Source of the DNA: Nannocystis bainbridge
Lineage (GTDB): Bacteria > Myxococcota_A > Polyangia > Nannocystales > Nannocystaceae
Direction of reading: 5' to 3'
Assembly: GCF_028368995.1 (NCBI RefSeq)
Contig: NZ_JAQNDL010000001.1
Location: forward strand, 1,280,001 to 1,344,000
Length of the DNA stretch: 64,000 bases
Under the pieces are notes generated by a model. The model made no database searches and was not told the DNA's origin. It saw only the letters and a program-made list of their open reading frames with translations. Positions 19,271 to 63,288 of this stretch are shown here, in pieces (position 1 is the first letter of the stretch; each line of letters starts with the position of its first letter). A program made the position numbers and the translations under genes.

Positions 19271-19564
19271 GCGCGCTCTGTCGGTGGTATGGGGCCCGCC
19301 GAGGTCGAGCCCGCCGGCGATGCCGGCGCTCGCCGTCCGTCACCGGTACATTTGGCCATGTCCTTGAGTACATGTCCCGACGGCCACGATGCCCCCGCCG
19401 AGGCCGCCGGGTTCACGGCGAGGCGGGCCAGAGATGGCGAAGGCCGCCACCTGCATCATCGCGCAATCCCCCCGAGGACCCCGAGGGCGGCCACGGCGGC
19501 CACGGCGGCCACGGCGGCCACGGGCGGCTTGGCGTGCAGGGCGCGGCCTGCTAGCCTCGGCGGT

Positions 19565-20674
19565 ATGACTTCGAATCCGCTTATCTCTTCTTCTTTCAAT
19601 AAACTCGATGTGTCCTTGGCGGCGCTGTTCTCGGTCTTGCTGTCAGGCTGCTATCCCCCGCTCGGTAACTGCTCGGCGACCTACGAGGACGAGATCGAGA
19701 TGACGCCCGAGGAATTCGCGGAGTTTCAGCATGGCGGCATGCCGGTCCTCGACGGTGACACGACCGCCGGGCCGACTACCTCCGCGGGGGCGACGGACGC
19801 GAGCACGACGGACGCGAGCACGACGGACGCGAGCACGACGGACGCGAGCACGACGGACGCGAGCACGACGGACACGACGGGCGGCGTCGTGCTCTCCGAC
19901 GAGGAGACCTGCCAGGTCGTCTGCCAGTCTGTGGGCGAAGAGCACGGAGCTCTGCGATCGTGCGAGGTCGCCAAGGCCCCCACCAAGGTGACGGTCACGT
20001 GCGTCTACCCGGCCTACTGCGAGGGCCGGCGGCACGCGAGCGTGGCGTCGCGGGGGCACGGGAGCGACGCCGAAGCGGCCGCGGCCTGGCTGGCGCGCGC
20101 GGCTCACGACGAGGCGGCCTCGGTTCACGCGTTCCATGCGCTCGCGCAGGAGCTGGCAGGCCTTGGCGCGCCGGCCGAGCTGCTGGCGCGCATCGATGCC
20201 GCCGCCGCGGACGAGGTCCGCCACGCCCGGGTCGTCGCCGACGCCGCGCGGGCCCGCGGCGCCGAGGTCACGCCGCCGGCCTGCGTCGCGGTGGCCGAGC
20301 GCGATCTGCTGGCGATCGCCGTCGAGAACGCGGTCGAGGGCTGCGTGCGCGAGACCTGGGCGGCGCTGTCGGCGGCCCATCAGGCCCGCTTCGCCGCCGA
20401 GCCTGCGATGCGCAGCATGTACGTCGAGATCGCCGCCGACGAGGCGCGTCACGCCGAGCTGGCGTGGGCGATCGACGCCTGGCTCATGGGACAGCTCGAT
20501 GTCGCCGGCAGAGCCGAGGTCGCAGCCGCGCGACAGGCGGCGATCGCGGAGCTGGACGCGTCGCTGCAGCGGCTCGAGGTGCCGGCGCTGCAGCGGCTCG
20601 GCGTGCCCTCGGCCGCGGTGGCCACGCGGCTATGCGCCGAGCTCGACGCGGCGCTGTGGTCGCGCGCAGCGTGA
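19565..20674 (+). CDS. Ferritin-like domain lipoprotein
   Basis: LSGC lipobox; EAASV, DEVRH, ENAVEGCVRET, DEARH di-iron ligand pattern. Confidence 0.8.
   Translation: MTSNPLISSSFNKLDVSLAALFSVLLSGCYPPLGNCSATYEDEIEMTPEEFAEFQHGGMPVLDGDTTAGPTTSAGATDASTTDASTTDASTTDASTTDASTTDTTGGVVLSDEETCQVVCQSVGEEHGALRSCEVAKAPTKVTVTCVYPAYCEGRRHASVASRGHGSDAEAAAAWLARAAHDEAASVHAFHALAQELAGLGAPAELLARIDAAAADEVRHARVVADAARARGAEVTPPACVAVAERDLLAIAVENAVEGCVRETWAALSAAHQARFAAEPAMRSMYVEIAADEARHAELAWAIDAWLMGQLDVAGRAEVAAARQAAIAELDASLQRLEVPALQRLGVPSAAVATRLCAELDAALWSRAA
19796..19870 (+). repeat. 15-bp tandem repeat x5 (DASTT)
   Basis: GACGCGAGCACGACG, five perfect copies in frame. Confidence 0.95.
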
Positions 20675-21001
20675 GCGAGGCGCGTCAGCGTGCTCGTCCC
20701 GCAATCGTCGAGCGTCGAGGCGCGACCGACGACCTCGTCGCCGGTCACGCCTCACGCGGTCGCGCCGACGATCGGCGACATGGCCGAAGAGCCAGCCGCT
20801 GCCCGGCGGGTGCGCCCGCGAAGGTCCACGACGTGGATGGCCGCCGGTGAACCACCGCGGGCCCCGATCGCCCGCTCCCTGCCGGGCACGTGCGTGAGCG
20901 ACGAGGCGAATGCGCGCATGCGGGCCACGAACGCGCGGTATGGAACTGGGCGACCCTCGCGCGGATTGCCTCGAGCGTCGCGCGCATGCAACGATGCCAT
21001 C

Positions 21002-21271
21002 ATGACCAGAAAGAGCATCGGCATGAGCTTCGTCGCGGCCCTGATCTCCGGGGCCGCCTGCGGCGGCGGGATGGAAAGCCAGGCCTGCAAGGACTACTTC
21101 GCGGCCGTCGAGACTTGCGCCGCCAAAGCGCCGGCGCCGAAGGGCGACATCTTGCGCAAGATGGCCGCCACTTCGAAAGAAGGCTTCGCCAAGAACAGCA
21201 ACCCCATGGCTGTCAGCGAGAGTTGCAAGGCGATGCTCACCAGCCTTCAAGCCGATCCAGACTGCAAGTAA
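21002..21271 (+). CDS. Small Cys-containing lipoprotein
   Basis: GAAC lipobox, four further Cys, 89 aa. Confidence 0.75.
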   Translation: MTRKSIGMSFVAALISGAACGGGMESQACKDYFAAVETCAAKAPAPKGDILRKMAATSKEGFAKNSNPMAVSESCKAMLTSLQADPDCK

Positions 21272-21417
21272 TTCAGCGAGCGAAGCGCGTGAGGCTCAGC
21301 GCCGGGCGGCGCCCGTGCAGCGCCCGCGCCGGCTCCGAGCGCGACTGGCACGCCCGGCGCCGCGTCATGGGCCCGCCGCGCTTGCAGCCCTGCCCGCGCC
21401 GGGTTACGAGCAACACC

Positions 21418-24057: not shown

Positions 24058-24305
24058 CTTCGTCTCACCCGCGACGACCCCGACGCCGCATTCTTAAAGA
24101 TGTCCCCGGGGACAGGCGGCGAAGTCGCCTCACGCAACTTCACCACATGTCCCTGAGGCCATATCGTCGCCTCTGCCTCGCAGCGCCTCCGACGTAGCTC
24201 TCGTCGCCCAGGGTCGCCACGGCTGCCGGCGAAGCAACCGTCCCGCCTCGCCGCGAGCGCGCGGCCGCTCGCGCCGTCGCGCCCCGATGAACCTCCCCGT
24301 CACAG

Positions 24306-27245: not shown

Positions 27246-27325
27246 CGAGGTGTCTCGCGGGACATGTCCCGAAGCGCATGTCCCCCAGGACATGCCTCTA
27301 ACAACATGTCCTCTCGGGCATGCGA
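27246..27325. repeat. 14-bp-period CATG array
   Basis: CATG cores at 27263, 27277, 27291, 27305, 27319. Confidence 0.9.
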
Positions 27326-28152: not shown

Positions 28153-28190
28153 GGACATGTCCTCGAAGACATGTCCCTCAGGGACATGGA
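28153..28190. repeat. 14-bp-period CATG array between convergent genes
   Basis: GACATG units with cores at 28156, 28170, 28185. Confidence 0.8.
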
Positions 28191-32300: not shown

Positions 32301-33047
32301 ATGAGCATCAGTGAAGCCAAGCCCACGCTCGCGGCGACCGCCGGGGTCACCCGCCCCGGCCGGATCAAGATCGGCGAGCTCGCGCGCAAGACCGGCAAGA
32401 CCCCGCGGGCCCTGCACCTTTACGAGGAGATGGGCCTGCTCGTCCCGAGCGCGCGGACCGAGGGCGGTTTCCGCCTCTACGGGCCCGACGAGGTCGCCCG
32501 GGTCTACTGGATCACCAAGCTCCAGGACATCGGCTTCAGCTTGCCGCAGATCCAGAGCCTCCTGGGCACGGTGGCCGCCTCGCAGACCGCCCCCGAGGCG
32601 ATGAACAGCGTGCGCGAGCTGTTCCGCGGCAAGCTCGACGACACGCGGGCTCAGGTCACCCGGCTCTTGCAGCTCGAGCGCGACCTGTCCGAGAGTCTCG
32701 CCTACCTCGAGGGTTGTCGCCTCTGCCAGGAGCCTGCCAAGCCGGACGCCTGCACCAACTGCATCAGCGAGCGCCGCAGCGACGAGCCGACCCCGTCGCT
32801 GGTGGTCGGCATCCACCGCAAGCCGGGCGTCGAGCCCGGCGCGCGGGCCTGCGCGATCGAGTCGGCCGCCGGCGGCCGCCTCGCCGACCTGTCCCCCAGG
32901 ACATCCGACCTGTCCCTGCGGACATCCGCGCCCGACCTGTCCCCGAGGACATCCGGGCCCGAGCTGGCCGCTCGCCCCGCCGAATTCGCCGCCCGCCCCG
33001 ACGGGCGCGCCGCCGCCGCCAACGAGCCCGAGGGCACCTTCCCATGA
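32301..33047 (+). CDS. MerR-family regulator with CxxC-x7-CxxC motif
   Basis: [33 protein letters not shown]; CRLC...CTNC; stop overlaps iscS ATG. Confidence 0.9.
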
Positions 33048-34753: not shown

Positions 34754-35086
34754 ATGCCGAGCCTCACCGTCACCTCGCGCGCCGCCAAGATCATGCGCGA
34801 CCAGCTGGCCCGCCGCGGCACCCCGCAGGCGGCGATCCGCCTCGGTATCCGCGGCGGCGGCTGCACCGGCTACTCGTACCTGTTCGAGTTCGAGGACAAG
34901 CCGCCGCGGGCCAACGACCTGGTCGTCGAGCAGGACGGCGTGCGCGTCGTCGTCGACCCCAAGAGCCTGTTCTACCTCGACGGCACCGAGGTCGACTTCG
35001 AGACCGGCATGCGCGGCCACGGGTTCAAGTTCAAGAACCCGAACACCAAGGACGCGTGCGGCTGCGGCGAGTCGATCTCGTTCTGA
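34754..35086 (+). CDS. iscA: A-type Fe-S carrier IscA
   Basis: [14 protein letters not shown]. Confidence 0.92.
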
Positions 35087-35117: not shown

Positions 35118-35170
35118 CGACCTGTCCCTTCGGACCTGCCCGATCGAGCCTGTCCCTTCGGACCTGTCCT
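35118..35170. repeat. 14-bp-period CCTG array
   Basis: Cores at 35121, 35135, 35149, 35163 between iscA and hscB. Confidence 0.85.
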
Positions 35171-38098: not shown

Positions 38099-38150
38099 GG
38101 ACATGCTCGTGAGGCCATGTCCTTCGGGACATGGCGAAAAGAGCATGCCC
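38099..38150. repeat. 14-bp-period CATG array
   Basis: Cores at 38102, 38116, 38130, 38144; includes the perfect hairpin CATGTCC-TTCG-GGACATG. Confidence 0.9.
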
Positions 38151-38181: not shown

Positions 38182-38366
38182 TCATCGGCGCAACCGAGTA
38201 GCGACCCAGCTAGCAGTCGGCGCTGCCACGACCTGTCCGGGTCGCGGCTCATCGGCGCAACCGAGTAGCGCTTCAGCACGAAGCCGGCGCTGCCACGTCC
38301 TGCCCGTCGGTTCGCGGGACAACGGCGCAACCGACTGGCGGCCCGCTCGAGGTCGGCGCTGTCACG
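38182..38366. repeat. Three imperfect ~67-70-bp tandem repeats
   Basis: CGGCGCAACCGA...CGGCGCTGYCACG recurs in units starting near 38182, 38249 and 38320. Confidence 0.75.
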
Positions 38367-40287: not shown

Positions 40288-40403
40288 GAATTACGGCGGA
40301 GCGGCGGCGCGGGTGACATGGCTCTTGGGCCAGGTGAGCACCGACGCTGACGCTCCGCGATCGACGAGCGCGCGGACGGGGGCGCCCGCGCGCGCGGACC
40401 GTG

Positions 40404-42623: not shown

Positions 42624-42700
42624 CCGCCTGCGCTTCGGGACATGCCCCAAAGCGCATGTCCCTTTGAACATGGCGCCGAGGCCATGCTCTCCGGGCCAGG
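42624..42700. repeat. 14-bp-period array between convergent genes
   Basis: Cores at 42627, 42641, 42655, 42669, 42683, 42697. Confidence 0.9.
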
Positions 42701-42768
42701 TACGCGAATGCCTGGACTCCCGCCGTCGAGCTCCCGGCCGCCCAGCGCGTGACGTGCGGTCCCCGCCC

Positions 42769-43290: not shown

Positions 43291-44784
43291 GTGGTGACCC
43301 GCCCCTCGCCCTTCGTCCGCCTCGGGTTCGCCGTGCGTCGCGGCTTCGGGCGCTTCACCCCCGATCCCTTCGTCGTCGCCGTCGCCATGACGCTCGTCAC
43401 CCTCGTCGCCGGCCTCGTCGCCCTCGGTGACGGCGCCGGCGGCCTCGTCCCCGTCCTCCGCCTGTGGAGCGCCAGCGGCGGCCTGTGGTCGCTGCTGGCC
43501 TTCGCCGGCCAGATGGCGCTCATGCTGACCCTCGGCACCGCCCTCGCCGCCGCCCCGCCCGTGCGGCGCGGCCTCGAAGCCCTCGCCCGTCGGGCCAGCG
43601 GCCCGCGCGGCCTCGTCGGCCTGGTCGCCTTTGGCTCCTGCACCCTCTGCCTCTTCAACTGGTCGCTCGGCCTCGTCTGCGGCGCCATGTTCGCCCGCAC
43701 CGCCGGCGACGAGGCGCGCCGTCGCGGCCTCGCCGTGCACTACCCGCTCCTGTGCGCCGCCGGCTACGCCGGCATGATGGTGTGGCACGGCGGCCTGTCC
43801 GGCACCGCCCCGCTCAAGGCCACCACCCTCGCCGACCTCACCGAGGTCCTCGGCCCCGAGCTCGCCGCTCGCGTCGGCCCGATCGGCCTCGACGCCAGTC
43901 TGCTCGGCGGCCTCAACCTCGCCGTCACCGGCGGCCTGTGGCTGCTGGCCCCGCTCGTGTTCATGGCCCTCACCCCGGCCGCCGGCGCCGACCCCGACCC
44001 GCAGCCCGCCCCGCCCCCGGGACATGTCCTCCTCGACATTGTTGAAGGGACATGTCCCGAGGAACATGCCCCTTCGACCACGGGCGCCCCCTCGACCGGA
44101 GCCACCAGCGCTCTGCCCGCCCCGTCCGGCCCGCGGGCTCCCGCCGCCCCGCCCGTGAGCGGTCTCGACTGGCTCGAGCGCTCGCCGCTGGTCGTGTGGG
44201 CGCTGGCGCTGCCGGCCGCGGCCGCGCTGGTATTTGCGCTCGGCGACACCGCCGGCCCGGCGCTCGACCTCAACGCCATCAACCTCGCGCTGTGGGTGCT
44301 CGCCCTGGTCCTGCACGGCCGCCCCGACGCCTTCGTGCGCGCCTGCGACGGCGGAGCCCGGGCCTCCGCCGGCATCCTGCTGCTGTTCCCGCTCTACGGC
44401 GGCATCATGGGCGTCATGAAGGGCACCGGCCTGGCCGCGGCGCTCGCCGGCGCGTTCGCGGCCGCCGACCCGCGCGTCTTCACCACCCTCACCTTCGTCT
44501 CGGCCGGCTTCCTCAACCTCTTCATCCCCTCGGGCGGCGGCCAGTGGGCCGTGCAGGGGCCGATCGTCATGAGCGCGGCGCTCGAGCGCGGCGTCGACCC
44601 GACCCACGCGATGCTGGCGATCGCCTACGGCGACCAGTGGACCAACATGCTGCAGCCGTTCTGGGCCGTCCCGCTGCTGGCGATCACCGGCGTGCGCGCG
44701 CGCGACATCATCGGTTACTGCACCCTGTGGCTGCTCGCCGGCGGCCTGTGGATCGCCGCCTGCCTGTTCCTCGCCTCGCTGTGA
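43291..44784 (+). CDS. atoE: Short-chain fatty acid transporter (AtoE family)
   Basis: PDPFV, WHGGLSG, FPLYGGIMG, IPSGGGQWAVQGP, GDQWTNMLQPFW. Confidence 0.85.
   Translation: MVTRPSPFVRLGFAVRRGFGRFTPDPFVVAVAMTLVTLVAGLVALGDGAGGLVPVLRLWSASGGLWSLLAFAGQMALMLTLGTALAAAPPVRRGLEALARRASGPRGLVGLVAFGSCTLCLFNWSLGLVCGAMFARTAGDEARRRGLAVHYPLLCAAGYAGMMVWHGGLSGTAPLKATTLADLTEVLGPELAARVGPIGLDASLLGGLNLAVTGGLWLLAPLVFMALTPAAGADPDPQPAPPPGHVLLDIVEGTCPEEHAPSTTGAPSTGATSALPAPSGPRAPAAPPVSGLDWLERSPLVVWALALPAAAALVFALGDTAGPALDLNAINLALWVLALVLHGRPDAFVRACDGGARASAGILLLFPLYGGIMGVMKGTGLAAALAGAFAAADPRVFTTLTFVSAGFLNLFIPSGGGQWAVQGPIVMSAALERGVDPTHAMLAIAYGDQWTNMLQPFWAVPLLAITGVRARDIIGYCTLWLLAGGLWIAACLFLASL
44020..44082. repeat. 14-bp-period array inside a CDS
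   Basis: Cores at 44023, 44037, 44051, 44065, 44079 in a transporter loop. Confidence 0.85.
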
Positions 44785-44902: not shown

Positions 44903-44968
44903 AGAAATGTCCCTTCGAGCATGCCCCTTAAAACATGTCTCTTCGAGCATGCCCTTTCAGACATGCTC
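44903..44968. repeat. 14-bp-period array between convergent genes
   Basis: Cores at 44906, 44920, 44934, 44948, 44962. Confidence 0.9.
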
Positions 44969-47266: not shown

Positions 47267-48127
47267 ATGCCCGCACCCGAGACCTCTCCGCGACCTGCGA
47301 CGACGACTTCCCGTCTTCGAGAGCCCCCCTTCACCCTCCTGCGCAGGGCGATGGGCGACGGGCCCACGCGGCGGCGCAAGCTGCTCGGCCTGGCGCTGGC
47401 GCTGCGCAGCTACGGCGACGAGCGGCAGGTGATGCCGAGGCTGCAGCGCCTCAAGGAGCTGGGGTGGGTCGACGAGATCCCGACGCGGATCCAGCGAATG
47501 CTCGGCGCGATCGACATGATGCGGTTCTTCATCGTGCCATGCGCGGCCGACTATTACCGGTCGAAGGGCATCAACTTCTATTTTCACACCCTGCTGCGCT
47601 TCCTCGACGACCCCTCGTCGCTCATCGATCCCACGGGCTTCAACAGCGGGCGCGACACCATCATCGGCCACGTCCTCCAGGTCGTGCACGCCAACCCCGA
47701 CTACGACCTGCAGCTGCTCGACTCGTTCCCCGACGGCCTGCACGCGATGGAGGAGCAGATCCTGGCGATCCTCGGCGGCACCCACCCGCGCGCCGCCTCG
47801 CTGCTCGCCACCGTCGAGGACCCGGAGTACCACGCCCGCCTGCTCGACCACGTGCGCGAGTTCCGGCGCCGCCAGCCGACGAGCGCCTCGCTGGTCCGCG
47901 AGAACATCCTCGGCGACGCCCACTTCCGGGTGCTCGAGCGGACCTTCGGCGAGCTGCCCCGGGCCATGCGCTACTTCAGCAAGCTGCCCCGCAGCCCGCT
48001 CGCGGCCGCCCGCCACCTGCTGTCGGTGCGCGAGTTCCCGCTGCACCTGGCCGAGGCGCTCTACAGCGAGCGGCCGGCCCCGCCCGAGGCGCTCTACGCC
48101 GAGCCGCCGGCCCCGGCCGAGACATGA
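47267..48127 (+). CDS. Hypothetical protein
   Basis: Strong codon bias, GGAG RBS, no family recognised. Confidence 0.7.
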   Translation: MPAPETSPRPATTTSRLREPPFTLLRRAMGDGPTRRRKLLGLALALRSYGDERQVMPRLQRLKELGWVDEIPTRIQRMLGAIDMMRFFIVPCAADYYRSKGINFYFHTLLRFLDDPSSLIDPTGFNSGRDTIIGHVLQVVHANPDYDLQLLDSFPDGLHAMEEQILAILGGTHPRAASLLATVEDPEYHARLLDHVREFRRRQPTSASLVRENILGDAHFRVLERTFGELPRAMRYFSKLPRSPLAAARHLLSVREFPLHLAEALYSERPAPPEALYAEPPAPAET

Positions 48128-48185
48128 CCTTCAGGGCATGTCCACGAGGGCATGCCCCATGGGACATGCCTCCGGCGACATGTCC

Positions 48186-48196
<11 letters not shown>
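48120..48196. repeat. 14-bp-period array spanning both stops of convergent genes
   Basis: Cores at 48123, 48137, 48151, 48165, 48179, 48193. Confidence 0.9.
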
Positions 48197-51004: not shown

Positions 51005-53335
51005 ATGGTCTCGCCCCAGGACCCGAGCGCGCCGGGCCCTTCCCCGTCGCCCCGCCCTGTCCCGCGCTGGTCGGTCGGCGCCCTCGCGCTCGTGCACGCG
51101 GGCATCTTCGCCTGGGCCGCCAGCGTGCTCCCGTGGCAGCGCTGGACCGCCTTCGCGGCGCTGACCGCCGGCCTCGCGCTCGCCCACGCCGTCACCGCCG
51201 CGTTCGCGCTCGCCGGCAGCCGCCACCGCGCCCGCGTGTGGCGGATCGGCTCCGCGCTGTCGCTGCTCTACCTCGCCATCCAGACCCTCATCGCCGCGCG
51301 CGCCGGCACCTACGTCGCCGCCCTCTACGGCGGCCTCGGCAAGGGCGTGTTCGCGGCCCTGGCCGCGCTGTGGGCCGTGCTCGTGCTCGTCACCTTGCCG
51401 TTCGCCGTGTGGGGCCTGGCCGCCACCGGCGGCCTCGGGTCCGGCCCCGGCCTGCGCCGCCGCGTCACTGGCGGCCTCGCGATCCTGCTCGCCCTGGTCA
51501 CCACCTCGCTGTGGCGGGCCGCCGCCGCCGCCGCCGCCGAGCCGATCGCCGTGATCGATCACGACCCCGCGGCCCTCGCCGCGGCGATCCAGGACGTCCT
51601 CCCGCGCGTGCCGGCGCGCAAGGGCGCCGACCTGTCCCTTTGGACACGTGCCCCGATCACCTGCGACTTCCCCGTCGACCGCCCGACCGCCTTCGTCGTC
51701 TACCCCGTCGCCGACAAGCCGGCCAAGAAGGGCCAGGGCATCAAGCTGCGCCCCGCGGCCCGCTGCGTCCAGGCCGACGACCCCGCCGGCCTCGTCGCCG
51801 CGCTCGGGGCCGTGGTCGCCGACGCCGGCGCGCCCGGGCCGATGAAGATCGACGTCGTCAGCGGCGCCCAGCCGCTGCGCGACGACTCGCCCGGCCCCTT
51901 GCCCCTGCTCCTCCGGCCCGGCCTCGACGGCGCCTGCGACGGCGCGCGCTGCCTGCTGCCGTGGCAGCTGCTCGGCCTCCATCAATTCCTCACCTACACC
52001 CCGCTGCCGTTCATCGAGGACCTGCGGTTCGGCGCCGCGCCGGCGGCCCTGCGCAAGGCCCTCGCACGCAAGGGCGACCCCGCCCCCGAGCCCGACGTCG
52101 GCATCGAGGGCCTCACCCGCCTCGCCACCGTCAGCCTCGTCGTCGACGGCGCCGGCGTCGTGCGCCCGCTGCCGCGCTTGCGCGACCCGATCGATCGACT
52201 CGACGCCGACCTGCTCGCCGACTCCGTCGCCGGCGCCGAGGCCCACATCCTCGCCGCCCAGGGCGACGACGGCCGCTTCCGCTACCTCCTGCACCCCTTC
52301 ACCGGCAAGGTCACCTGGCGCGGCTTCGCCGTCCCGCGCCAGGCCGGCACCACCCTCGCCCTGTGCGAGCTCGGCAGCGACGCCGCCGTGCCCGCCGCCC
52401 GCAAGTCGCTGGCGATGCTCGCCGGCCTGCGCAAGGACTACCCCGGACCTGGCCATTCGGTCCTGTCCTATCAGGAAGGTCGGCCGCCGACCCTCGGCGA
52501 CCTCGGCAGCACCGCCCTGCCGCTGATCGCCTTCCTCACCTGCCGCGATCGCACCGGCCCCGAGCACGACGAGCTCATCGGCGCGCTCGGCCGCTACCTC
52601 CTGGCGATGCAGCGCCCCGACGGCGGCTTTCATGCCCGCGTCACCCTCGCCACCGGCGAGGCCCACGTCGGCCCCGACCTGCTCTACGCCGCCGGCCAGG
52701 CGGTCTACGCCCTGGTCCTGCTCGAGCAGCTGACCGCGCGCGGCGCGAGCGAGCTGCTGCCCGCGCACGCCGAAGTCAAGGCCGCCGTCGCCCGCGCGAT
52801 GGACTACTTCGCCGACGACTACTGGGCCCACGGCCTCTACGGCTTCTTCTTCCTCGAGGAGAACTGGCACTGCCTGGCCGCCCGCGCCGCTCTCGGCGTC
52901 CACCGTCACCCCGGCTACGAGCGCTTCTGCCTCGACTACGTCGATTTCAAGCAGCGCCTGATCATGGACGAGTCGAGCGGCGTCGCCCCCGAGCTGGTCG
53001 GCTCGTACGGCTTCGGCAACGTGCTCATCCCCCACAACACCCCGTCGGCCGGCTTCGGCGAGGCCATGGCCGCGGCCATGGCCGTGCGCGCCGCCGACGG
53101 CCAGCCGCGCCCCGAGGACGCGGCGCTGATGACGAAGGTGCTGACCTTCCTGATCGAGCAACAATGGTCGGCCGCCAACTGCTTCGCGTGCTCGCGCGAG
53201 CAGAAAGTCATCGGCGGCTGGTCGGAGTCGATCGGCTCGCTCGACGTGCGCATCGACTACACCCAGCACGCCTGGTCGGCCCTCGGCCACGGCGGCCGCG
53301 AGCTCGGCCTGCTGCCGCGGAGCGGCGGTGGCTGA
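51005..53335 (+). CDS. Membrane-anchored protein with (alpha/alpha)-barrel-like C-terminal domain
   Basis: About five N-terminal TM helices; QGDDGRFRY, MQRPDGGF and RIDYTQH motifs. Confidence 0.7.
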   Translation: MVSPQDPSAPGPSPSPRPVPRWSVGALALVHAGIFAWAASVLPWQRWTAFAALTAGLALAHAVTAAFALAGSRHRARVWRIGSALSLLYLAIQTLIAARAGTYVAALYGGLGKGVFAALAALWAVLVLVTLPFAVWGLAATGGLGSGPGLRRRVTGGLAILLALVTTSLWRAAAAAAAEPIAVIDHDPAALAAAIQDVLPRVPARKGADLSLWTRAPITCDFPVDRPTAFVVYPVADKPAKKGQGIKLRPAARCVQADDPAGLVAALGAVVADAGAPGPMKIDVVSGAQPLRDDSPGPLPLLLRPGLDGACDGARCLLPWQLLGLHQFLTYTPLPFIEDLRFGAAPAALRKALARKGDPAPEPDVGIEGLTRLATVSLVVDGAGVVRPLPRLRDPIDRLDADLLADSVAGAEAHILAAQGDDGRFRYLLHPFTGKVTWRGFAVPRQAGTTLALCELGSDAAVPAARKSLAMLAGLRKDYPGPGHSVLSYQEGRPPTLGDLGSTALPLIAFLTCRDRTGPEHDELIGALGRYLLAMQRPDGGFHARVTLATGEAHVGPDLLYAAGQAVYALVLLEQLTARGASELLPAHAEVKAAVARAMDYFADDYWAHGLYGFFFLEENWHCLAARAALGVHRHPGYERFCLDYVDFKQRLIMDESSGVAPELVGSYGFGNVLIPHNTPSAGFGEAMAAAMAVRAADGQPRPEDAALMTKVLTFLIEQQWSAANCFACSREQKVIGGWSESIGSLDVRIDYTQHAWSALGHGGRELGLLPRSGGG

Positions 53336-54032
53336 CCCCCGCGGCGGCGCCGAGCGGCCTGCCCCCGGGGACATGTCCCACGGGCCAGCCGACTCCGCCG
53401 CCGTCGCGCCTGCCCTCGAGGTCATACATGCCCCCGGGGACATGTCCCACGGGCCAGCCGATACCGCCGCCTCCGCGCAGACGCCTGTCCCCCGAGACAT
53501 GTCCTCCGGGCCAGCCGATACCACCATCCATCCTGGCCCCATGCCTACCCCCCCGGGCATGTCCTCCGGGCCCTTCGACCCCCACGCCTCCGCCGTCTGG
53601 CCGTGGCTGGTCGGCCTGGTGCTGGTCGGCCTGTCGCTGTCGCCGATGCTGCGCCCGCTCGGCTACGACTCGTTCCCGTTCTCGAGCTTCCCGATGTTCG
53701 CCCACGGCCGCAAGGACGCCGTCACCAACGTGCACCGCGCCGTGGCCGTCGGGCCCGACGGCGCCAAGGTCTCGCTGCCCCCGCGCGCCCTCGGCAGCGA
53801 CGAGGTCCTGCAGGCCGACGTCACCCTGCGCCACGCCATCCGCCGCGGCAAAAAGGCCAGCGCCGCGCTGTGCCGCACCGTCGCCCGCCGGATCGCCGGC
53901 GACCCGGCCCACGCCGACGCCGTCGCCGTCGAGCTGCTGACCGAGCGCCACGACGCCCTCGCCTACTTCGCCGGCGACACCACCCCGCTGGCCCCACCCA
54001 AGCGGCAAGCCCGCTGCAAGATCGCGCGATGA
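53328..54032 (+). CDS. HTTM partner protein with repeat-derived N-terminus
   Basis: TM segment then DSFPFSSFPMF; coupled by overlaps to both neighbours. Confidence 0.65.
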   Translation: MADPRGGAERPAPGDMSHGPADSAAVAPALEVIHAPGDMSHGPADTAASAQTPVPRDMSSGPADTTIHPGPMPTPPGMSSGPFDPHASAVWPWLVGLVLVGLSLSPMLRPLGYDSFPFSSFPMFAHGRKDAVTNVHRAVAVGPDGAKVSLPPRALGSDEVLQADVTLRHAIRRGKKASAALCRTVARRIAGDPAHADAVAVELLTERHDALAYFAGDTTPLAPPKRQARCKIAR

Positions 54033-55021
54033 AGGACACGCCCTCCGACGCGACGCATGCCCCCAAGGACATGCCCCTGAAGCCAGGTCCGAACGGACAG
54101 GGCTGTTCGGACATGCTCTCCCGGGCAGCCCGCGCCGTCGACCGCTGGTACCGCCCGGTCGCCGCGCCCGAGCGCCTCGCGGCCCTGCGGATCCTCGTCG
54201 GCGGGTTCGCCGTCGCCTACCTCGCCCTGCGTCTGCCCAACCTGCTCGGCCTGCACGGCCTCGGCGGCTTCCGTCCGGTCGGCGTCGTCTCGGTCCTCGC
54301 CGCCCCGCTGACGACCGCCGCCGTGATCGTCCAGGCCGTGCTCGCCCTGCTGCTCGGCCTCGCCTTCGCCTTTGGCCTCGCCTTCCGCGTCAGCGGCCCC
54401 GCCTTCGCCTTCGTCCTGCTGTGGGTGCTGAGCTACCGCAACGCCTGGGGCATGATCTTCCACACCGAGAACCTGCTGGTCTTGCACACGCTCGCGCTCG
54501 GCTGCTCGCCCGCCGCCGACGTCTGGTCGCTCGACGCCCGCCGGGCCCGTCGCCGCGGCGCCCCCGAGCCTGTCCCTTCGACCAGGTACGGCTGGCCGGT
54601 GCGCCTGCTCGGCCTGCTCACCGTCGGCACCTACTTCGTCGCCGGGGTCGCCAAGCTGCGCCTGTCCGGCCTCGGCTGGGCCACCTCCGACCTGCTGCGC
54701 AACTACATCGCCTACGACAACCTGCGCAAGCACCTGCTCGGCGACTGGTACTCGCCGTTCGGCGCCTGGCTGGTCGGTCACGCCTGGCTGTTCCCGCCGC
54801 TGGCGACCGCCAGCCTCCTGCTCGAGCTGCTGGCCCCGATCGCCCTGCTCGGGCCCCGGATCGCCCGCGTCTGGTCGCTGCTGGCCTGGGGCTTCCACTT
54901 CGGCGTGTGGGCGATCATGGCGATCTTCTTCCCCTACCCGCTGCTCGGCCTCGCCTTCGCCCCGCTGTTCGCCGTCGAGCGCCTGCCGCTGCTGCGCCGC
55001 CTGGCCCGCAGCGCGGGCTGA
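54029..55021 (+). CDS. HTTM-domain membrane protein
   Basis: RLAALRILVG, WSLDA, YFVAGVAKL..SGLGW, GFHFG. Confidence 0.8.
   Translation: MKDTPSDATHAPKDMPLKPGPNGQGCSDMLSRAARAVDRWYRPVAAPERLAALRILVGGFAVAYLALRLPNLLGLHGLGGFRPVGVVSVLAAPLTTAAVIVQAVLALLLGLAFAFGLAFRVSGPAFAFVLLWVLSYRNAWGMIFHTENLLVLHTLALGCSPAADVWSLDARRARRRGAPEPVPSTRYGWPVRLLGLLTVGTYFVAGVAKLRLSGLGWATSDLLRNYIAYDNLRKHLLGDWYSPFGAWLVGHAWLFPPLATASLLLELLAPIALLGPRIARVWSLLAWGFHFGVWAIMAIFFPYPLLGLAFAPLFAVERLPLLRRLARSAG
54053..54118. repeat. 14-bp-period array at the 5' end of the HTTM gene
   Basis: Cores at 54056, 54070, 54084, 54098, 54112. Confidence 0.85.
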
Positions 55022-55222
55022 CCGCCGAGGCGTCGAGGGGACATGTCCCTCGGGACATCCTCCGCCTCTTCGCCTCGTCCGCGACCCGCCGGCCGCGGAC
55101 GCCCCCAGGTGCTACGCCGCCTGGCCCACAGCGCAGGCTGACCGCCGAGACCTCGAGTGACCTGTCCCTCGGGACATCCTCCGCGCCTCGTCGCATCCGT
55201 GATCCGCCGGCCGCGGACGCCC
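54992..55222 (+). repeat. ~120-bp imperfect tandem duplication of the HTTM gene 3' end
   Basis: CGCCGCCTGGCCC...GCTGACCGCCGAG...TGTCCCTCGGGACATCCTCCGC...CGCCGGCCGCGGACGCCC occurs twice. Confidence 0.8.
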
Positions 55223-57161: not shown

Positions 57162-57177
57162 GTCCCGAGCGCCCGCC

Positions 57178-57801: not shown

Positions 57802-57940
57802 TCGTGCGCCCCGGCTTTGACGGGCCCAGGGCTCGGTCCGCGGCGCCCGTGCGCGGCCCGAATCAGCGCACGCGACTGACAGCTTGACGCAGAGGTCCCG
57901 CGAGGCCGTGGTCGCTCAGTCTCGCCGATCGGCGGCCCTC

Positions 57941-58058
57941 GTGCGCGAGCACGACCTGAAATCCGCGCGCTCTCGGTGCCGCGATCGTCGGCCCCCGTGC
58001 GCGAGCACGACCTGAAATCCGCGCGCACTCGGTCCGCGATCGTCGGTCTCCGTGCGCG
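57941..58058. repeat. ~56-bp tandem duplication upstream of the ECF sigma gene
   Basis: GTGCGCGAGCACGACCTGAAATCCGCGCGC at 57941 and 57997. Confidence 0.85.
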
Positions 58059-58819: not shown

Positions 58820-59934
58820 CCGACGATCGCCGCCTCGATCCGTTCCTCGCCGCCGCCGCCGCCGAGGCCGAGCGCAGCGCCACGCGCCCGCCGCCCAGCT
58901 TCGCCGCCGTGCTCGCGCGCGCCCACAGCCTCGCCCCCGACGCCGTGGCCCCGCCGGCCGCCGCGCCCACGCTCTCTGCATTGCCCTTCGGACATGTTCT
59001 TTACGACATGCCCGATGCGCCATCCTCCCCCGCCACCGCGCGGCCTCCCGGACACGCCCCGTCCGCCGGACCCGACGCGCCCCCGGCACGGACCGCAGGG
59101 CCATCCCCCGACCCGCACGCCGCCGACCTCGCGCCCTTCCTCACCGCCGCGCGCGGCCTCACCGACGCCGACGTGGCAGCGCAGCTGCGCCGCCCGCTCC
59201 CGCCGCTCCCGCGCCCGCGCCCACGCGTCCCCCTGCTCGTGTGGGCGGCCGCCGCCGCGCTGCTGCTGCTGGCCGGCGCCGGCGCCCTACGTCGCCTCGC
59301 CGATCCCGCCCACGCCGATCGCACCGCAGCCCAGGCCGACGACACCGTGCGCGGTCGCCCGCAGCAGCACCAATCCGAGCCGCGCGTCCCGTCCAGCAAT
59401 GTCCGTAACGACATGTCCGATAGAACAGGTCCGGAAGGCCATATCGCCGACCACCCCGCCGAACATGTCCCAGCGCCCCAGGCACCCGCCGCACCTGCCC
59501 AAAAAGACATCTCACCTCTCAAGCCCGCGCCATCCCCTGTCTCCGCGGCCCGCAAGCCGGTCACCGACGCGCTCGCCGATCAGCTCGCCCGCCTCGACGA
59601 CGAGGCCGAGGCCCTGCTCCTCGCCGGCGCTCTCGATCAGGCCGACGCGCGCTATCAGCAGATGATCGCCATCGGCGGGCGGCGAGCTGCCGTCGAGCAC
59701 GCCTTCGCCGATCGCTGGCTGCTGGCCCGGCGCCAGGGCGACGACGCCGGCCACCGCCAGCTCCTGCACGCCTACCTCAAAAAATTCCCGCGCGGTCGGT
59801 TCGCCGACGAGGCCAGCGCCGGCCTCTGTCGGCTCGCCGACGCCGACGCCCGCCCTGACTGCTGGCGGGCCTACCGCGAGCGCTTCCCCGCCGGCGCCTA
59901 CCGCCGCGAGGCCGACGAGGCGGCCGTCCCATGA
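58816..59934 (+). CDS. Putative membrane anti-sigma factor with TPR-like C-terminus
   Basis: Overlaps the sigma stop; one TM; YLKKFPRG and YRERFPAG motifs. Confidence 0.7.
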   Translation: MTDDRRLDPFLAAAAAEAERSATRPPPSFAAVLARAHSLAPDAVAPPAAAPTLSALPFGHVLYDMPDAPSSPATARPPGHAPSAGPDAPPARTAGPSPDPHAADLAPFLTAARGLTDADVAAQLRRPLPPLPRPRPRVPLLVWAAAAALLLLAGAGALRRLADPAHADRTAAQADDTVRGRPQQHQSEPRVPSSNVRNDMSDRTGPEGHIADHPAEHVPAPQAPAAPAQKDISPLKPAPSPVSAARKPVTDALADQLARLDDEAEALLLAGALDQADARYQQMIAIGGRRAAVEHAFADRWLLARRQGDDAGHRQLLHAYLKKFPRGRFADEASAGLCRLADADARPDCWRAYRERFPAGAYRREADEAAVP

Positions 59935-60794
59935 GCCCGCGTCGCCTGCTGCTCGTCCTCCCGCTGATGCTCGCCTGCGGCATCGACACCTACGTGCTCG
60001 AGTTCGAAAGCGCCGGCGAGCCCACCACCACCTCCTCCTCGTCCGCCGCCACCAGCGAACCTCCGACCACCGACGACCCCACCACGACCGAGCCCGGGCC
60101 CGACGACACCACTCAGGGACAGACCACCGACGTCTCCACCACCTGTCTCGGCCCCGCCTGCGAGGTCCTCCCCGACGGCGCCTGCGATCCCGAGAATCCC
60201 CTCGACCCCGACTGCGACGACCAGGTCTGCAACCTGGACGACCCGCTCGATCTCGACTGCGACGACGGCTGGTGTCCGATCGGCGACCCCGCCGACCCCG
60301 ACTGTCACGACGGCGACTGCAACCCGCAGAACATGGGCGACGGCGACTGCGACGACGATTACTGCGACAAGTTCGACGGCGACGACCTCGACTGCGACGA
60401 CGGCCGCTGCAACGTCATGCTCGATCCCGGCGATCCCGACTGCAGTGACGGCCAGTGCGACGGCGATCCCGGCGACCCTGAATGCATGCAGCCGTGCCAG
60501 CCGGGCGACCCGAATTGCAGCGACGGCACCTGCGATCCGATGAACCCCGCCGACCCCGACTGCATCGCGTGCATGGCCGACGCCGACTGCCCCCTCTCGC
60601 AGGTGTGCGTGAACGGCCTCTGTCAATGCAACGACGCCAACGACCCCGGCTGCGCCGGCGACGGCGTCTGCGATCCCGACCTCATGGGCGATCCCGACTG
60701 CGGCGACGGCGTCTGCGAGCCCATGCTGCCGGGCGATCCCGACTGCGGTGACGGCGTCTGCGATCCGATGAACCCCGCCGACCCAGACTGCTGA
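59931..60794 (+). CDS. Cys/Asp/Pro-rich repeat lipoprotein
   Basis: MLAC lipobox; DGxCDP..DPDC repeats. Confidence 0.8.
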   Translation: MSPRRLLLVLPLMLACGIDTYVLEFESAGEPTTTSSSSAATSEPPTTDDPTTTEPGPDDTTQGQTTDVSTTCLGPACEVLPDGACDPENPLDPDCDDQVCNLDDPLDLDCDDGWCPIGDPADPDCHDGDCNPQNMGDGDCDDDYCDKFDGDDLDCDDGRCNVMLDPGDPDCSDGQCDGDPGDPECMQPCQPGDPNCSDGTCDPMNPADPDCIACMADADCPLSQVCVNGLCQCNDANDPGCAGDGVCDPDLMGDPDCGDGVCEPMLPGDPDCGDGVCDPMNPADPDC

Positions 60795-60856: not shown

Positions 60857-62071
60857 ATGCGTCCCCAGTCCTTCCGCAACCCATCCTCAGTCCTGCTCTC
60901 ATTCGCCTTGCTGTTCGGCCTCGCCTGCCAGATCGAGCTCAAGGGCGGCGACACGGCCGGCCTCGACGACGACGACACCTCCGGCGGCATGCAGCCCGTC
61001 TGCGATCCCAATCAGGTCATGGACCCCGATTGTTGGGACGGCGCCTGCGACCCGAACAACGCCGACAACGACCCCGACTGCTGGACGCCGCCAGGCGACG
61101 GCGTCTGCGAGATGGAGCCGAACGACCCGGATTGTCAGCCGCCGTGCCAGGGCGACGAGTGCCCCGACAACGTCTGCGATCCGATGAACCCTGCCGATCC
61201 CGACTGCGGCAGCGGCGGCGACGGCTGGTGCGACCTCGACATCATGGGCGACCCCGACTGCGGCGACGGCGTCTGCAACCCGATGAACCCCGGCGACCCC
61301 GACTGCCAGAGCTGCGACCCCAACCTGCCCGGGTGCGGCGGCGACGGCATGTGCGATCCGATGGACCCCGCCGATCCCGACTGCCAGAACCAGTGCAGCG
61401 CCGACGCCGACTGCCCGCAAGCCCAGGTGTGCATCAACGGCGCCTGCCAGTGCGCCGACCCGATGGATCCGAATTGCGGCGGCGGCGACGGCTGGTGCGA
61501 CATCGACATCATGGGCGACCCCGACTGCGGCGACGGCGTGTGCAACCCGATGAACCCCGCCGATCCCGACTGCCAGAACAGCTGCCCGCCCGGCGATCCC
61601 AATTGCCCCGACAACGTCTGCGACCCCGCCAACCCCATGGACCCCGACTGCTGGTTCATGTGCGTCGCCGACTCCGACTGCCCCATGGGACAGGTGTGCA
61701 TCGAGGGCCTGTGCGGCTGCGCCGACCCGAACGACCCCCAGTGCGGCGGCTCCGACGGCGTGTGCGACCCGATGAACCCCGCCGATCCCGACTGCTTCCA
61801 GTGCGACCCCGCCGATCCCATGTGCTTCGACGGCTTCTGCGATCCCATGCTGCCGGGCGACCCCGACTGCGGCTTCGTCTGCACCAGCGACGCCGACTGC
61901 GGCCCCGGCAACGTGTGCGTCAACGGGGCCTGCGAGTGCTTCGGCGTGTCCTGCCCGGACGGCGTGTGCGACCCGAACGCGCCCCAGGACCCCGACTGCC
62001 AGCCCCCGGCCTGCATGAGCGACGCCGACTGCCCGCTCGCGCAGGCCTGCCTCATGGGTCTGTGCCTGTGA
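60857..62071 (+). CDS. Cys/Asp/Pro-rich repeat lipoprotein (paralog of the upstream gene)
   Basis: GLAC lipobox, AAGGAG RBS; DGVCDPMNPADPDC and C..DADC...QVC..G.C units. Confidence 0.85.
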   Translation: MRPQSFRNPSSVLLSFALLFGLACQIELKGGDTAGLDDDDTSGGMQPVCDPNQVMDPDCWDGACDPNNADNDPDCWTPPGDGVCEMEPNDPDCQPPCQGDECPDNVCDPMNPADPDCGSGGDGWCDLDIMGDPDCGDGVCNPMNPGDPDCQSCDPNLPGCGGDGMCDPMDPADPDCQNQCSADADCPQAQVCINGACQCADPMDPNCGGGDGWCDIDIMGDPDCGDGVCNPMNPADPDCQNSCPPGDPNCPDNVCDPANPMDPDCWFMCVADSDCPMGQVCIEGLCGCADPNDPQCGGSDGVCDPMNPADPDCFQCDPADPMCFDGFCDPMLPGDPDCGFVCTSDADCGPGNVCVNGACECFGVSCPDGVCDPNAPQDPDCQPPACMSDADCPLAQACLMGLCL

Positions 62072-62103
62072 GCCGCCCGCGCTGCTAACATCCGCCGCCC
62101 CGC

Positions 62104-63288
62104 ATGACGCAGGCGGCGCTCCTCCTCGCGGCGCTGCTCGCCGCTCCTGCTCCGGCGACGCCGACCCTCGCGCCGCCGGCCGCGGCCCTGCGCGCGCCCA
62201 CGCTCGTCGTGCGCGCGCGCGGCCTCGACGAGCGGGCCCTCGCCGGCGCCCTGCGGCCGCGCTCCGGCGGCGCCGAGGTCGTGCTCTTGCGCGACGTCGC
62301 CAGCGTCGACCCCGACCACACCTTCGTCGAGGTCGAGCAGCAGGCCGGCGAGCTCGCCGTCACCGTCATCCTCGGCGACGGTCGCGTGTTCGTCCGGCGC
62401 GGTCCCGGCGGCGGCCCGCGCGACGCCGCCCGCCTGTGCGCCTCGATGCTGGCCGCCATCGCCGACGACGCCCTCGCCCCCCTGCCCGAGCGGGCCGCCA
62501 GCCCCGCCCTCGCCGCAGCGCCTTCGGGACAGGTCCCCGAGGACATGTCCCAAGAGCCCGACGCTGCGGACGCCGGTCTCACCGTGACGACACCTCCCGC
62601 CCCGCCGCAGGTCGTCCCGCCACCACCTGACCCCGAGAACATGTCCCCCGCGCCAGCCGCCGAGGACCTCGTCGAGCCGACCCCCGCGCCGGTCGCTGCC
62701 TCACCTGGCCAGGAGGACAGGCGACTCGCGCTCACCGTCGGGCTCGCCGGCGGGCCGCTCTTTGGCCTCCGTCCCGACCCCGGCGTGCGCGGTGGCGGTG
62801 GCGAGGTCCGCGTCGATCTCCGCGGATCGCGGCCGTGGCTCGTCACCGCGGGCCTGCGCGCGATCGGTCAGACGGCCGTCAGCACGGGTTTGCAAAGTCG
62901 TGAAGAGCGCTTCGGGCTCGCCCGCGTGCGCGTCAGTTTTGGGGTCGGTGCGTGGCTCGTGCGGCGCCGGTTCGAGCTGCGCGCGACCGCGAGCCTCTCG
63001 CTCGAGCCGTGGTGGATCACCCACCATAGTCGTCGCGTCGCCCTCGGCGAATCCACAGTTCCCGCGCCGCTGCTCGGCGGGCTCGTCCGTATCACTCCGA
63101 CCTTCGTGGTCTCGCAGCGGATGAGTCTGGGCCTATTCGCCGAGCTGGCCGCCAGCGCGACCCCGACCGGCAACGCCGTGCGCGTCCGCTTCGGGGACGC
63201 GCGCATCTTCAGCGCAGGCGGCATCGAACTCGGCTTCGGCATCGAGCTGCGTGTGCGTGCGTGGTCGAAACCGCCAAAACAGGGGTAA
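62104..63288 (+). CDS. Exported protein with Pro-rich linker and amphipathic beta-strand C-terminus
   Basis: Signal peptide; alternating strands suggest a possible outer-membrane barrel. Confidence 0.6.
   Translation: MTQAALLLAALLAAPAPATPTLAPPAAALRAPTLVVRARGLDERALAGALRPRSGGAEVVLLRDVASVDPDHTFVEVEQQAGELAVTVILGDGRVFVRRGPGGGPRDAARLCASMLAAIADDALAPLPERAASPALAAAPSGQVPEDMSQEPDAADAGLTVTTPPAPPQVVPPPPDPENMSPAPAAEDLVEPTPAPVAASPGQEDRRLALTVGLAGGPLFGLRPDPGVRGGGGEVRVDLRGSRPWLVTAGLRAIGQTAVSTGLQSREERFGLARVRVSFGVGAWLVRRRFELRATASLSLEPWWITHHSRRVALGESTVPAPLLGGLVRITPTFVVSQRMSLGLFAELAASATPTGNAVRVRFGDARIFSAGGIELGFGIELRVRAWSKPPKQG

Follow-up and report, generated by a model that had tools for sequence, protein, structure and literature searches.

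What keeps a short interrupted palindrome in thousands of copies in a bacterial genome, and whether it is read there as DNA or as RNA, are the questions raised by a 64,000-nucleotide stretch of Nannocystis bainbridge (contig C1, positions 1280001-1344000; hereafter the window), in which arrays of the inverted repeat TGTCC-N4-GGACA recur at gene ends. The genome (G000) comprises 11.05 Mb in five contigs and has a G+C content of 71.5%. A preliminary description of the window had reported arrays of degenerate units with cores 14 bp apart, and the present analysis confirms this observation, with counts far in excess of chance. The copies have long resided in the genome and are not recent insertions; their CATG/CAKG core persists, the arms having drifted and the 4-nt linkers having been scrambled. 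They are tentatively regarded here as a recognition motif acting at the level of DNA, akin to the highly iterated palindrome (HIP1) and the uptake signal sequences (USS), which a dimeric protein would bind and whose arrays would have grown by slippage.

The basic element is the inverted repeat TGTCC-N4-GGACA, with an extended form C(A/C)TGTCC-N4-GGACA(T/G)G (CMTGTCC-N4-GGACAKG). Motif counts were controlled with dinucleotide shuffles, off-period chains, other spacers and the reversed pattern. The exact inverted repeat occurs in 1987 copies genome-wide, compared with about 9.5 expected from composition (about 209-fold), and the same arms separated by spacers of 0-3 or 5-12 nt occur in 0-16 copies each. 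More than half of the plus-strand CATGTCC arms (2049 of 3806, 54%) have a partner matching in at least five of seven positions at a distance of four nucleotides, the corresponding numbers for other spacers being at most 42. Within the window, CATGTCC is found 48 times against 6.7 +/- 2.75 in shuffles, the extended form with up to two mismatches 55 times against 1.01 +/- 0.95, and the exact inverted repeat 11 times against 0.04; N5 and N3 spacers (up to one mismatch) are there at chance levels (4 vs 1.6 and 3 vs 1.8). Neighbouring copies abut and share one CATG, so that a 10-bp palindrome, GGACATGTCC, appears every 14 bp, and in its perfect form this palindrome is present in 956 copies in the genome. 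The N4 inverted repeat is nevertheless a more basic description than a 10-bp palindrome with a 4-nt linker. Thus, the N4 inverted repeat of the preliminary description stands as the primary unit and the 14-bp unit as such does not.

The 14-bp register of the cores, as originally described, is strict. Pairs of CATG in the window number 25 at 14 bp, 15 at 28 bp and 11 at 42 bp, with 0-4 at neighbouring distances. The spacing autocorrelation over contig C1 has a peak of 1546 pairs at 14 bp and harmonics at 28, 42, 56 and 70 bp; distances of 13 and 15 bp account for 25 and 113 pairs, respectively, the second figure being usual for multiples of three. When units with up to three mismatches to GGACATGTCC were chained at a fixed period, the whole genome yielded 3916 period-14 chains of at least two units and 1198 of at least three, with chain lengths from two to nine units represented by 2718, 541, 298, 202, 115, 32, 6 and 4 chains, respectively; periods of 12, 13, 15 and 16 yielded 142-448 pairs and at most eight chains of at least three units. 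Good units (up to one mismatch) follow one another at 14 bp in 602 instances, at 13 bp in one and at 15 bp in none, and the register outlasts intervening degenerate units (214 at 28 bp vs 7 at 27 or 29 bp; 146 at 42 bp vs 10 at 41 or 43 bp). Tandem Repeats Finder independently gives period-14 arrays at window positions 27260, 35119, 44046 and 44907.

Conservation within the 10-bp palindrome is concentrated in its core (position weights C4 0.96, A5 0.90, T6 0.92 and G7 0.97; arms 0.60-0.80). The linkers are variable, with an A/T-rich middle (about 60% vs 28.5% for the genome) and strong dinucleotide preferences (TT, AA, AT, CG, TC and GA; mutual information 0.25). Conserved flanks were not found, the information outside the units being at most 0.4 bit except for one position of 0.8 in four-unit runs, which is read as degenerate neighbouring units. 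Partners of the CCTGTCC arms most commonly take the forms CCTGTCC-N4-GGACATC and CCTGTCC-N4-GGACAGC (126 and 110, respectively, of those with GGACA); the former, seen at window positions 32888-32953, 55042-55059 and 55161-55178 and recurring in the few arrays of short divergent gaps, may be a separate class of site. The claim that the motif is undescribed has held so far, as Rfam gave no match at the gathering score in the window and a full-text literature search, which left out subscription journals and supplementary files, gave no description of the element.

The position of the element relative to genes was examined with our own codon-usage gene caller, a crude one that called 79-83% of each contig as coding and whose errors are inherited by all the coding and intergenic counts given here. 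Over the final 150 nt of 6967 genes, each 10-nt bin holds about 5 units with up to one mismatch; the three bins past the stop codon hold 229, 426 and 434, after which the numbers decay. This jump from about 5 to about 430 bears out the earlier impression that many arrays lie just after stop codons. A peak at +6 from the stop is due to arrays whose first unit includes the stop codon (GGACATGACC), as at window positions 48125-48127. Arrays are present in 742 of 1432 convergent gaps (52%; 57-68% of those of 50-400 bp), in 931 of 4918 tandem gaps (19%; 33-38% of those of at least 200 bp) and in 194 of 1441 divergent gaps (13.5%; 3.4% of those of 100-200 bp and none of the 155 under 100 bp), and 29 cases in short divergent gaps were listed with an autoregulated binder in mind. 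The median distance of a tandem-gap array is 18.5 nt to the stop before it and 150 nt to the start that follows, and arrays of convergent gaps lie 16 and 18 nt from the two stops. Arrays are found on all the contigs at uneven densities (6-47 per 200 kb), and neither a single cluster nor a pattern relating to the replication origin or terminus was seen in array density over the five unordered contigs.

The arrays and copies considered in the window are as follows.

19354..19388: two-unit array in a tandem (+/+) gap, 84 nt past the called stop at 19270.
24099..24166: exact TGTCC-CCGG-GGACA (24101-24114) and a two-unit array (24143-24166) in the convergent gap 24057/24306.
27260..27322: array of four to five units beginning 17 nt past the called stop at 27243; this junction holds three units, five units and none in three congeners.
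28153..28188: array of two to three units beginning 1 nt past the TGA of a plus-strand gene, in the convergent gap 28152/28258.
32888..32953: plus strand, three exact copies of TGTCC-N4-GGACA at distances of 21 and 27 bp, in the called gene 32301-33047 and kept in four congeners.
35118..35169: four-unit array of the non-palindromic CCTG core type, 32 nt past the stop at 35086; a CCTG-type array of four to five units is found at this site in all four congeners (five species in total).
38099..38150: four-unit array with a perfect CATGTCC-TTCG-GGACATG (38116-38133), 16 nt past the stop at 38083; its predicted RNA fold is -40.9 kcal/mol (z -5.95).
40314..40345: degenerate CATG...CAGG pair with a 14-bp spacing, identified by eye in the convergent gap 40001/40404 and too weak for the array threshold.
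42627..42703: array of five to six units beginning 4-15 nt past the stop at 42623, in the convergent gap 42623/42769.
44020..44071: units at 44020, 44048 and 44062 within the called open reading frame (ORF) 43291-44784, either in frame or intergenic; homology blocks with congeners end just past them, at 44081-44160.
44903..44968: five-unit array with a 28-bp super-period, 17 nt from the stop of a minus-strand gene; the predicted fold is -30.2 (z -4.4) on the minus strand and -15.7 (z -1.6) on the plus strand.
48120..48196: array of five to six units filling the 59-bp convergent gap 48127/48186, with the TGA of the plus-strand gene inside unit 1 (GACATGACC); kept in five congeners, with unit number varying by 14-bp steps.
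51628..51651: plus strand, single inverted repeat with an exact TGTCC-CTTT-GGACA (51633-51646) in the well-supported gene 51092-53335; kept without indels in four congeners.
53358..53515: three motif pairs (53358, 53427 and 53484) in the tandem gap 53335/53559.
54056..54118: array of four to five units, 24 nt past the stop at 54032; four congeners have four, four, two and four units.
55039..55181: ...TGTCC-CTCG-GGACATCCTC in two copies at a distance of 119 bp, in the gap 55021/55650.
58979..59514: three arrays (58990, 59395 and 59491) in a low-scoring called ORF (score 29); the region is probably non-coding.
62527..62550: two-unit array in a low-scoring called ORF (score 38), kept in four congeners.

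All the arrays named in the preliminary description are present, including the perfect CATGTCC-TTCG-GGACATG at 38116-38133. Its statement that every convergent junction checked beyond 19 kb has an array holds, by our gene calls, for five of the six junctions and fails near 40.3 kb, where only the degenerate pair was recognised by eye. The convergent junctions before 19 kb (at about 8.0 and 12.3 kb) have no array, and positions 1-19000 are nearly free of copies, with a single CATGTCC at 10024 and a single weak match at 8750. Other repeats were also noted in the window. A 67-bp tandem repeat (38182-38366; 2.7 copies, 78% matches) lies directly downstream of the array at 38099-38150 in a region with no called gene, and a 56-bp tandem repeat (2.4 copies, 92% matches) is found at 57926-58058. 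Repeats of 45 bp (60656-60791) and 267 bp (61212-61768) lie inside called ORFs, and their abundance of GAC, TGC and GGC codons suggests a repeated Asp/Cys/Gly protein module.

The location of arrays at gene ends makes a comparison with known termination signals relevant. A U-tract after the arrays was not found: of 396 oriented arrays, 15 have TTTT in the 20 nt downstream. TTTT lies in the 20 nt upstream of 35 of them, which indicates that some arrays sit behind a canonical terminator (as in the record L007, described below). A canonical intrinsic terminator, a G+C-rich hairpin with a U-tract directly after it, was thus rejected as an identity for the element. Canonical hairpin-plus-T terminators show no excess in 20 kb of the window (9 vs 5.1 +/- 2.5). 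Transfer RNA (tRNA) genes, which by eye bear hairpin-plus-T terminators, have an array within 150 nt downstream in 7 of 102 cases and upstream in one. These genes include a group of 25 in about 2.6 kb (C2:2556665-2559233; aragorn) and smaller clusters at C2:2356727-2357509 and C2:2134398-2134804. T-runs are absent from the most over-represented 8-mers of G000. In a sample from a sister genus with 62% G+C (G011; L034-L042, 166 kb), T-runs such as CGGTTTTT and GGTTTTTT are the top 8-mers, fitting ordinary U-tract terminators as expected. The Rho domain PF07497 was not found in N. bainbridge or in 18 other genomes of the same family; of 12 other families in the class, 10 gave a match. The genomes searched for Rho are 64-97% complete. 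The full Rho protein of a class relative had no match in G000, G001, G010 and G011, and TIGR00767 had none in G000. The idea that the arrays (14 nt x 6 units) serve as Rho utilisation (rut) sites was dropped, as a sense-strand bias of C over G is lacking and Rho was not found. Readings of CAUG as a pause signal, a CsrA site or a start codon were also dropped, since they do not fit the positions.

Comparison of orthologous junctions in four to five congeners (86-91% identity of the flanking genes) shows that the array is mostly kept, with linkers rewritten and unit number shifting by 14-bp steps. In an ortholog comparison with the congener G010, of which about 0.5 Mb was covered, 11 of the 12 N. 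bainbridge arrays of at least three units have an array of at least two units at the orthologous site, and the twelfth site keeps recognisable units. Over 17 intergenic arrays (55 units) compared between these species, identity is 0.87-0.95 in the core, 0.58-0.80 in the arms, 0.58-0.68 in the linkers and 0.72 in the flanks. Identical linkers are in excess both in adjacent positions (84 of 1886 vs 22.5 +/- 4.6 expected) and in alternate positions (58 vs 13.8). This excess, along with that of reverse-complementary linkers considered below, indicates that the arrays grow by slippage of 14 and 28 bp, sometimes as extended palindromes; an array at C1:1423496, with three near-identical units, is locally homogenised.

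The element is also common inside coding DNA, with 749 of the 1987 exact copies (about 38%) within called genes, and the gene-end picture of the preliminary description is to this extent incomplete. Single in-gene copies could be aligned to homologues from other genera in 28 cases (several of them alignments of paralogues), and 27 of these have no gap; such copies were made in place by substitution. Arrays of at least three units within called genes number 234, and 131 of these have the same best strand and frame on both sides. Pfam searches of six array hosts identified all of them as real proteins with the array between or within domains:

Lhr helicase, array at residues 243-260, between DEAD and Helicase_C.
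CarA, array at residues 174-196, between its two domains.
A kinase-AAA-GAF-histidine-kinase protein (Ser/Thr-kinase/histidine-kinase), two arrays.
A Glu/Leu-type dehydrogenase, in-frame array.
A ferredoxin-FAD-NAD reductase, in-frame array.
A DUF4178 protein, in-frame array.

As three units make 42 nt, any reading frame yields a single period of 14 residues (approximately GHVxEDMSxxTGPx). All five congeners examined (six species in total) have the arrays in carA and lhr, with cores kept, linkers scrambled and all three reading frames used, the surrounding codons being far better conserved; CarA of nine other genera is without the approximately 15-20 array residues.

The distribution of the element in related lineages is steeply graded, and the scan of genome and relatives shows a motif hugely amplified in its own genus, modest in two sister genera and at background in eleven others. 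The exact motif occurs 1987 and 1793 times in two large genomes of the genus (reversed control 3 and 5) and 333 times in a fragmentary 6.6-Mb assembly (reversed control 4), 67-169 times in six genomes of the two sister genera (reversed control 1-10) and 2-20 times in the eleven other genera (reversed control 0-7). Of 10 congeners scanned for a strict three-unit pattern, 9 had it; 8 further genera of the family and 12 further families of the class gave no match, and the reversed control gave none either. Clean triple units number 255 in N. bainbridge compared with 43-102 in large congeners (2.5-6 times as many). A scan of one genome per species for the exact three-unit pattern gave a single outside record (L007), which is syntenic with N. 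bainbridge at 79-81% nucleotide identity. Matches to this record also revealed a sequence of several kb recurring near the ends of C1 (twice, inverted; 4519933-4527474) and C2 (3020959-3025897), probably a repeat that broke the assembly.

In the sister genus represented by G013, the matches listed occupy about 50 distinct places and are all isolated, three of them appearing by eye to lie in coding sequence. One motif copy, also judged by eye, falls in a conserved ...GTPQGGVISPLL... stretch of a reverse-transcriptase-like ORF (L118, about 1490-1560). A comparable periodic palindrome was not found in the sister-genus samples (166 kb of G011 and 99 kb of G013). The distribution indicates that the motif predates the genus and was then amplified there with arrays. 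Associated genes were also sought. The D12-class adenine methyltransferase family (PF02086), the only methyltransferase family searched, is present in N. bainbridge and in 25 of 31 relatives including genera without the motif, and so does not track it. ComEC and DprA homologues are present in N. bainbridge, although they are near-universal and tell little on competence.

Whether pairing of the transcribed units is the conserved feature was examined from several angles, and the data point only weakly to pairing as the selected feature. Neighbouring units in 3736 unbiased CATG pairs form Watson-Crick pairs more often than independence predicts, by 0.036-0.065 (for example, 0.484 vs 0.432 for positions 8:3 and 0.520 vs 0.455 for the outer 3:8); inside a single unit, these positions show a slight anti-correlation. 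Clustering is stronger for homotypic cores (CCTG-CCTG 65 vs 19 expected; CAGG-CAGG 87 vs 17) than for complementary ones (CCTG-CAGG 30 vs 20; a further complementary pair 24 vs 16). Linkers are unskewed on the sense strand, where the loop TTCG occurs 26 times and CGAA 24 times. The sense strand has the more stable predicted fold in 189 arrays and the less stable one in 182, a mean difference of -1.3 kcal/mol (p 0.04) that is marginal beside that of control regions (-0.43, p 0.047). RNAalifold predicts a nested hairpin for the carA array of three species with a double change in 1 of 32 pairs, the sequences being too few to weigh.

Taken together, these results are best accommodated, if tentatively, by a motif that a sequence-specific dimeric protein recognises in duplex DNA. 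Where sites abut, the dimers could line up along an array, and either selection for binding or a molecular drive exerted by that protein would keep the motif abundant throughout the genome, much as HIP1 of cyanobacteria and the uptake sequences of Neisseria and Haemophilus are thought to be maintained. Copies survive in permissive DNA: after stops (especially convergent ones), in genes as single copies made by substitution, and in protein linkers as in-frame arrays. They are absent from short promoter-bearing gaps. The post-stop position would largely reflect the only free DNA in compact gaps, and hairpins in 3' untranslated RNA would be a side effect, possibly co-opted at gene ends. Candidate roles include nucleoid or boundary marking, DNA uptake or recombination, and a block to read-through. 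This reading fits best with the strict spacer, the context-independent conservation of core over arms, the strand symmetry, the gene copies made in place and the graded lineage pattern. The preliminary description had offered two alternatives, a cooperatively polymerising DNA-binding protein or a repetitive extragenic palindromic (REP) or bacterial interspersed mosaic element (BIME)-like RNA or mobile element. The former is the better fit to the strict N4 spacer, the conservation of core over arms, the weak covariation and the in-place origin of copies in genes, with a binder that is only putative; of the latter, the positions at 3' ends and convergent junctions stand, and against it are the lack of a REP-associated tyrosine transposase (RAYT) and the residence of the arrays.

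Several observations weigh against recognition as duplex DNA. The proposed binding protein is hypothetical and the idea comes from sequence statistics alone; DNA binding by itself leaves the exact abutting of sites unexplained; and the division into coding and intergenic copies depends on the crude gene caller. The tight post-stop position (median 18.5 nt) also fits a role in RNA. The covariation between units is small yet real, several arrays fold stably (z -4 to -6), the arms between two cores hold more information than those at array ends, and alternate linkers are reverse-complementary more often than expected (43 vs 13.9). In 283 arrays oriented by the upstream gene, the sense strand has G3 at 35% against C8 at 22%, and T9 and T10 exceed A2 and A1, which is the wobble-tolerant direction for the mRNA strand. 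These last points, with the jump in unit density at the stop codon, the occupancy of convergent and longer tandem gaps and its absence from the 155 shortest divergent ones, favour the main competitor, a REP/BIME-like RNA element in which tetraloop or nested hairpins at mRNA 3' ends would stop 3' exonucleases or aid transcript ending and in which sequence identity would reflect common descent. Being palindromic, such an element would work both ways between convergent genes. Strong predicted folds, the much better folding of the array at 44903 on the strand of the nearer gene, the substitution excess of G and U with unskewed linkers, the chance-level frequency of canonical terminators in the window and the failure to find Rho in the family genomes searched are also in its favour. 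It is nonetheless considered rather unlikely, as the arrays lack a U-tract (TTTT downstream in only 15 of 396) and follow just 7 of 102 tRNA genes, covariation is weak with non-pairing homotypic variants tolerated, sense and antisense folds are equally stable with TTCG no commoner than CGAA, the core is better conserved than the pairing arms, 749 exact copies lie within genes and were created in place, and carA and lhr have conserved arrays in their interior, a place at which ending the transcript would be harmful. The DNA-level and RNA roles could both be true at once, and a dual role has likewise been argued for uptake sequences in terminators (PMC2346458).

A variant of recognition by a protein, to which we give little credence, would make the arrays lattices for a dedicated sequence-specific protein that marks where transcription units end. 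Such a bidirectional system, based on protein and serving as a boundary or for termination, would have been amplified from about 70-170 ancestral sites in a family in which Rho was not detected, with the in-gene copies as tolerated weaker sites. The element might instead be a non-functional by-product of sequence-biased repair or mutation (such as very-short-patch repair tied to a CATG methyltransferase site) combined with slippage of a self-complementary unit. Origin of copies in place by substitution, the signatures of slippage and homogenised arrays such as that at C1:1423496, the grading of abundance over three genera, a distribution matching permissive DNA and the presence of a D12-class adenine methyltransferase are all consistent with such an origin. 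It is decidedly unlikely, however, since the D12 family extends to motif-free genera, repair bias acts on a contiguous short site and leaves a strict N4 between arms of 5-7 bp unexplained, CATG outside the arrays is near compositional expectation by our own estimate, and the conservation of HIP1 within and between ORFs, a pattern repeated here, has been taken to favour selection over biased repair (PMC5861425). A non-autonomous mobile element, like a MITE (miniature inverted-repeat transposable element) or a REP doublet (REPIN), could in principle have been inserted by a transposase as 14-bp units or small arrays, of which those at gene ends and in genes survived. The thousands of dispersed copies, the in-frame arrays that add residues to CarA in the manner of Rickettsia palindromic elements and the surplus of clean triple units in N. 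bainbridge would suit this origin, which is highly improbable in view of the rest. The Y1 transposase of RAYT proteins (PF01797) was not found in any of 11 genomes of the genus including N. bainbridge, the control search matching 6 of 14 reference genomes, so that the idea of RAYT-linked REP elements fails in N. bainbridge and 10 congeners. Conserved flanks or terminal repeats were not found outside the units, and 27 of 28 single in-gene copies are not insertions. No empty-site polymorphism was seen, as G010 has an array at 11 of 12 sites and those of carA and lhr occur in all six species. Membership in the MITEs was rejected on these grounds (no conserved ends, occupied orthologous sites and gene copies that are not insertions). 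A phage origin was likewise rejected, as the one match in viral contigs is a single site at the very end of a contig, probably host flank.

Known repeat systems share some of these features, each in a different combination. HIP1 (GCGATCGC), the highly iterated palindrome of cyanobacteria, is 15-300-fold over-represented (PMC5861425) and has cognate orphan methyltransferases. The two elements are alike in being short palindromes over-represented by two orders of magnitude (about 209-fold here), restricted to a lineage and without a settled function, and in occurring both within and between ORFs with conservation between species beyond that of coding. HIP1 is, however, a contiguous 8-mer and the Nannocystis motif consists of two arms of 5-7 bp with an obligatory 4-nt spacer; head-to-tail arrays or crowding in the first 30 nt past stops are not reported for HIP1 in the portion of the source available, and no methyltransferase is tied to the Nannocystis motif within the D12 family searched. 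The USS of Pasteurellaceae and the DNA uptake sequences (DUS) of Neisseriaceae are likewise lineage-specific motifs in hundreds to thousands of copies, dense in and out of genes with a large in-gene share and arising by substitution; 47-70% of USS lie inside coding regions, and intergenic USS and DUS are often inverted repeats with the capacity for hairpin formation, whose proposed function as terminators is disputed (PMC2346458). They differ in being asymmetric motifs that pair only sometimes, the Nannocystis unit being an inverted pair with a fixed N4, and 14-bp arrays of up to nine units are not a described feature of USS or DUS.

REP and BIME elements are short palindromes rich in G+C, of which hundreds occur singly or in clusters with a bias to convergent gaps; they can affect mRNA stability and are bound by integration host factor (IHF), DNA polymerase I and gyrase (PMC3184786). 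The Nannocystis element resembles them as a short imperfect palindrome with 1987 exact and thousands of imperfect copies at 3' ends and in convergent gaps. It differs in lacking a RAYT and a GTAG-type flanking tetranucleotide, in not being confined to extragenic DNA and in its strict 14-bp register; unlike in REP and BIME, the arms are themselves palindromic, so that direct repeats are also inverted repeats. Rickettsia palindromic elements (RPE) are described in the same part of that source as palindromic repeat DNA in frame in functional protein genes (PMC3184786), a likeness that extends only to the multi-unit Nannocystis arrays. RPE are about 105-146 bp long, whereas the Nannocystis inserts are runs of 14-bp units and most copies lie outside genes. 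Head-to-tail units on which protein dimers touch along the DNA are found in the met-boxes of MetJ and the iterons of plasmid partition sites. The likeness, of short units placed head to tail without a gap, is one of working principle only, as those are single loci before particular genes or on plasmids and not thousands of gene-end sites. The strict interrupted-palindrome unit, the abundance within genes and the gradient across genera set the Nannocystis element apart.

If the proposed recognition as DNA is true, this element would be a second well-marked case, after the cyanobacterial HIP1, of a short palindrome kept extremely abundant by constraint on the DNA itself. The strict spacer, the strict 14-bp register and a host group that is culturable and non-pathogenic make the question experimentally tractable, and the steep gradient over related genera (about 2000, 100 and 5 copies) makes phylogenetic profiling for a partner protein possible. 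For the annotation of these genomes of 11-13 Mb, a single element accounts for about 2% of intergenic sequence and half of the convergent junctions. Repeat DNA also shapes proteins here, as a 14-residue periodic peptide in CarA, Lhr and more than 100 other ORFs, and the findings raise the question of how transcripts end in a lineage of 72% G+C with few U-tract terminators and no detectable Rho.

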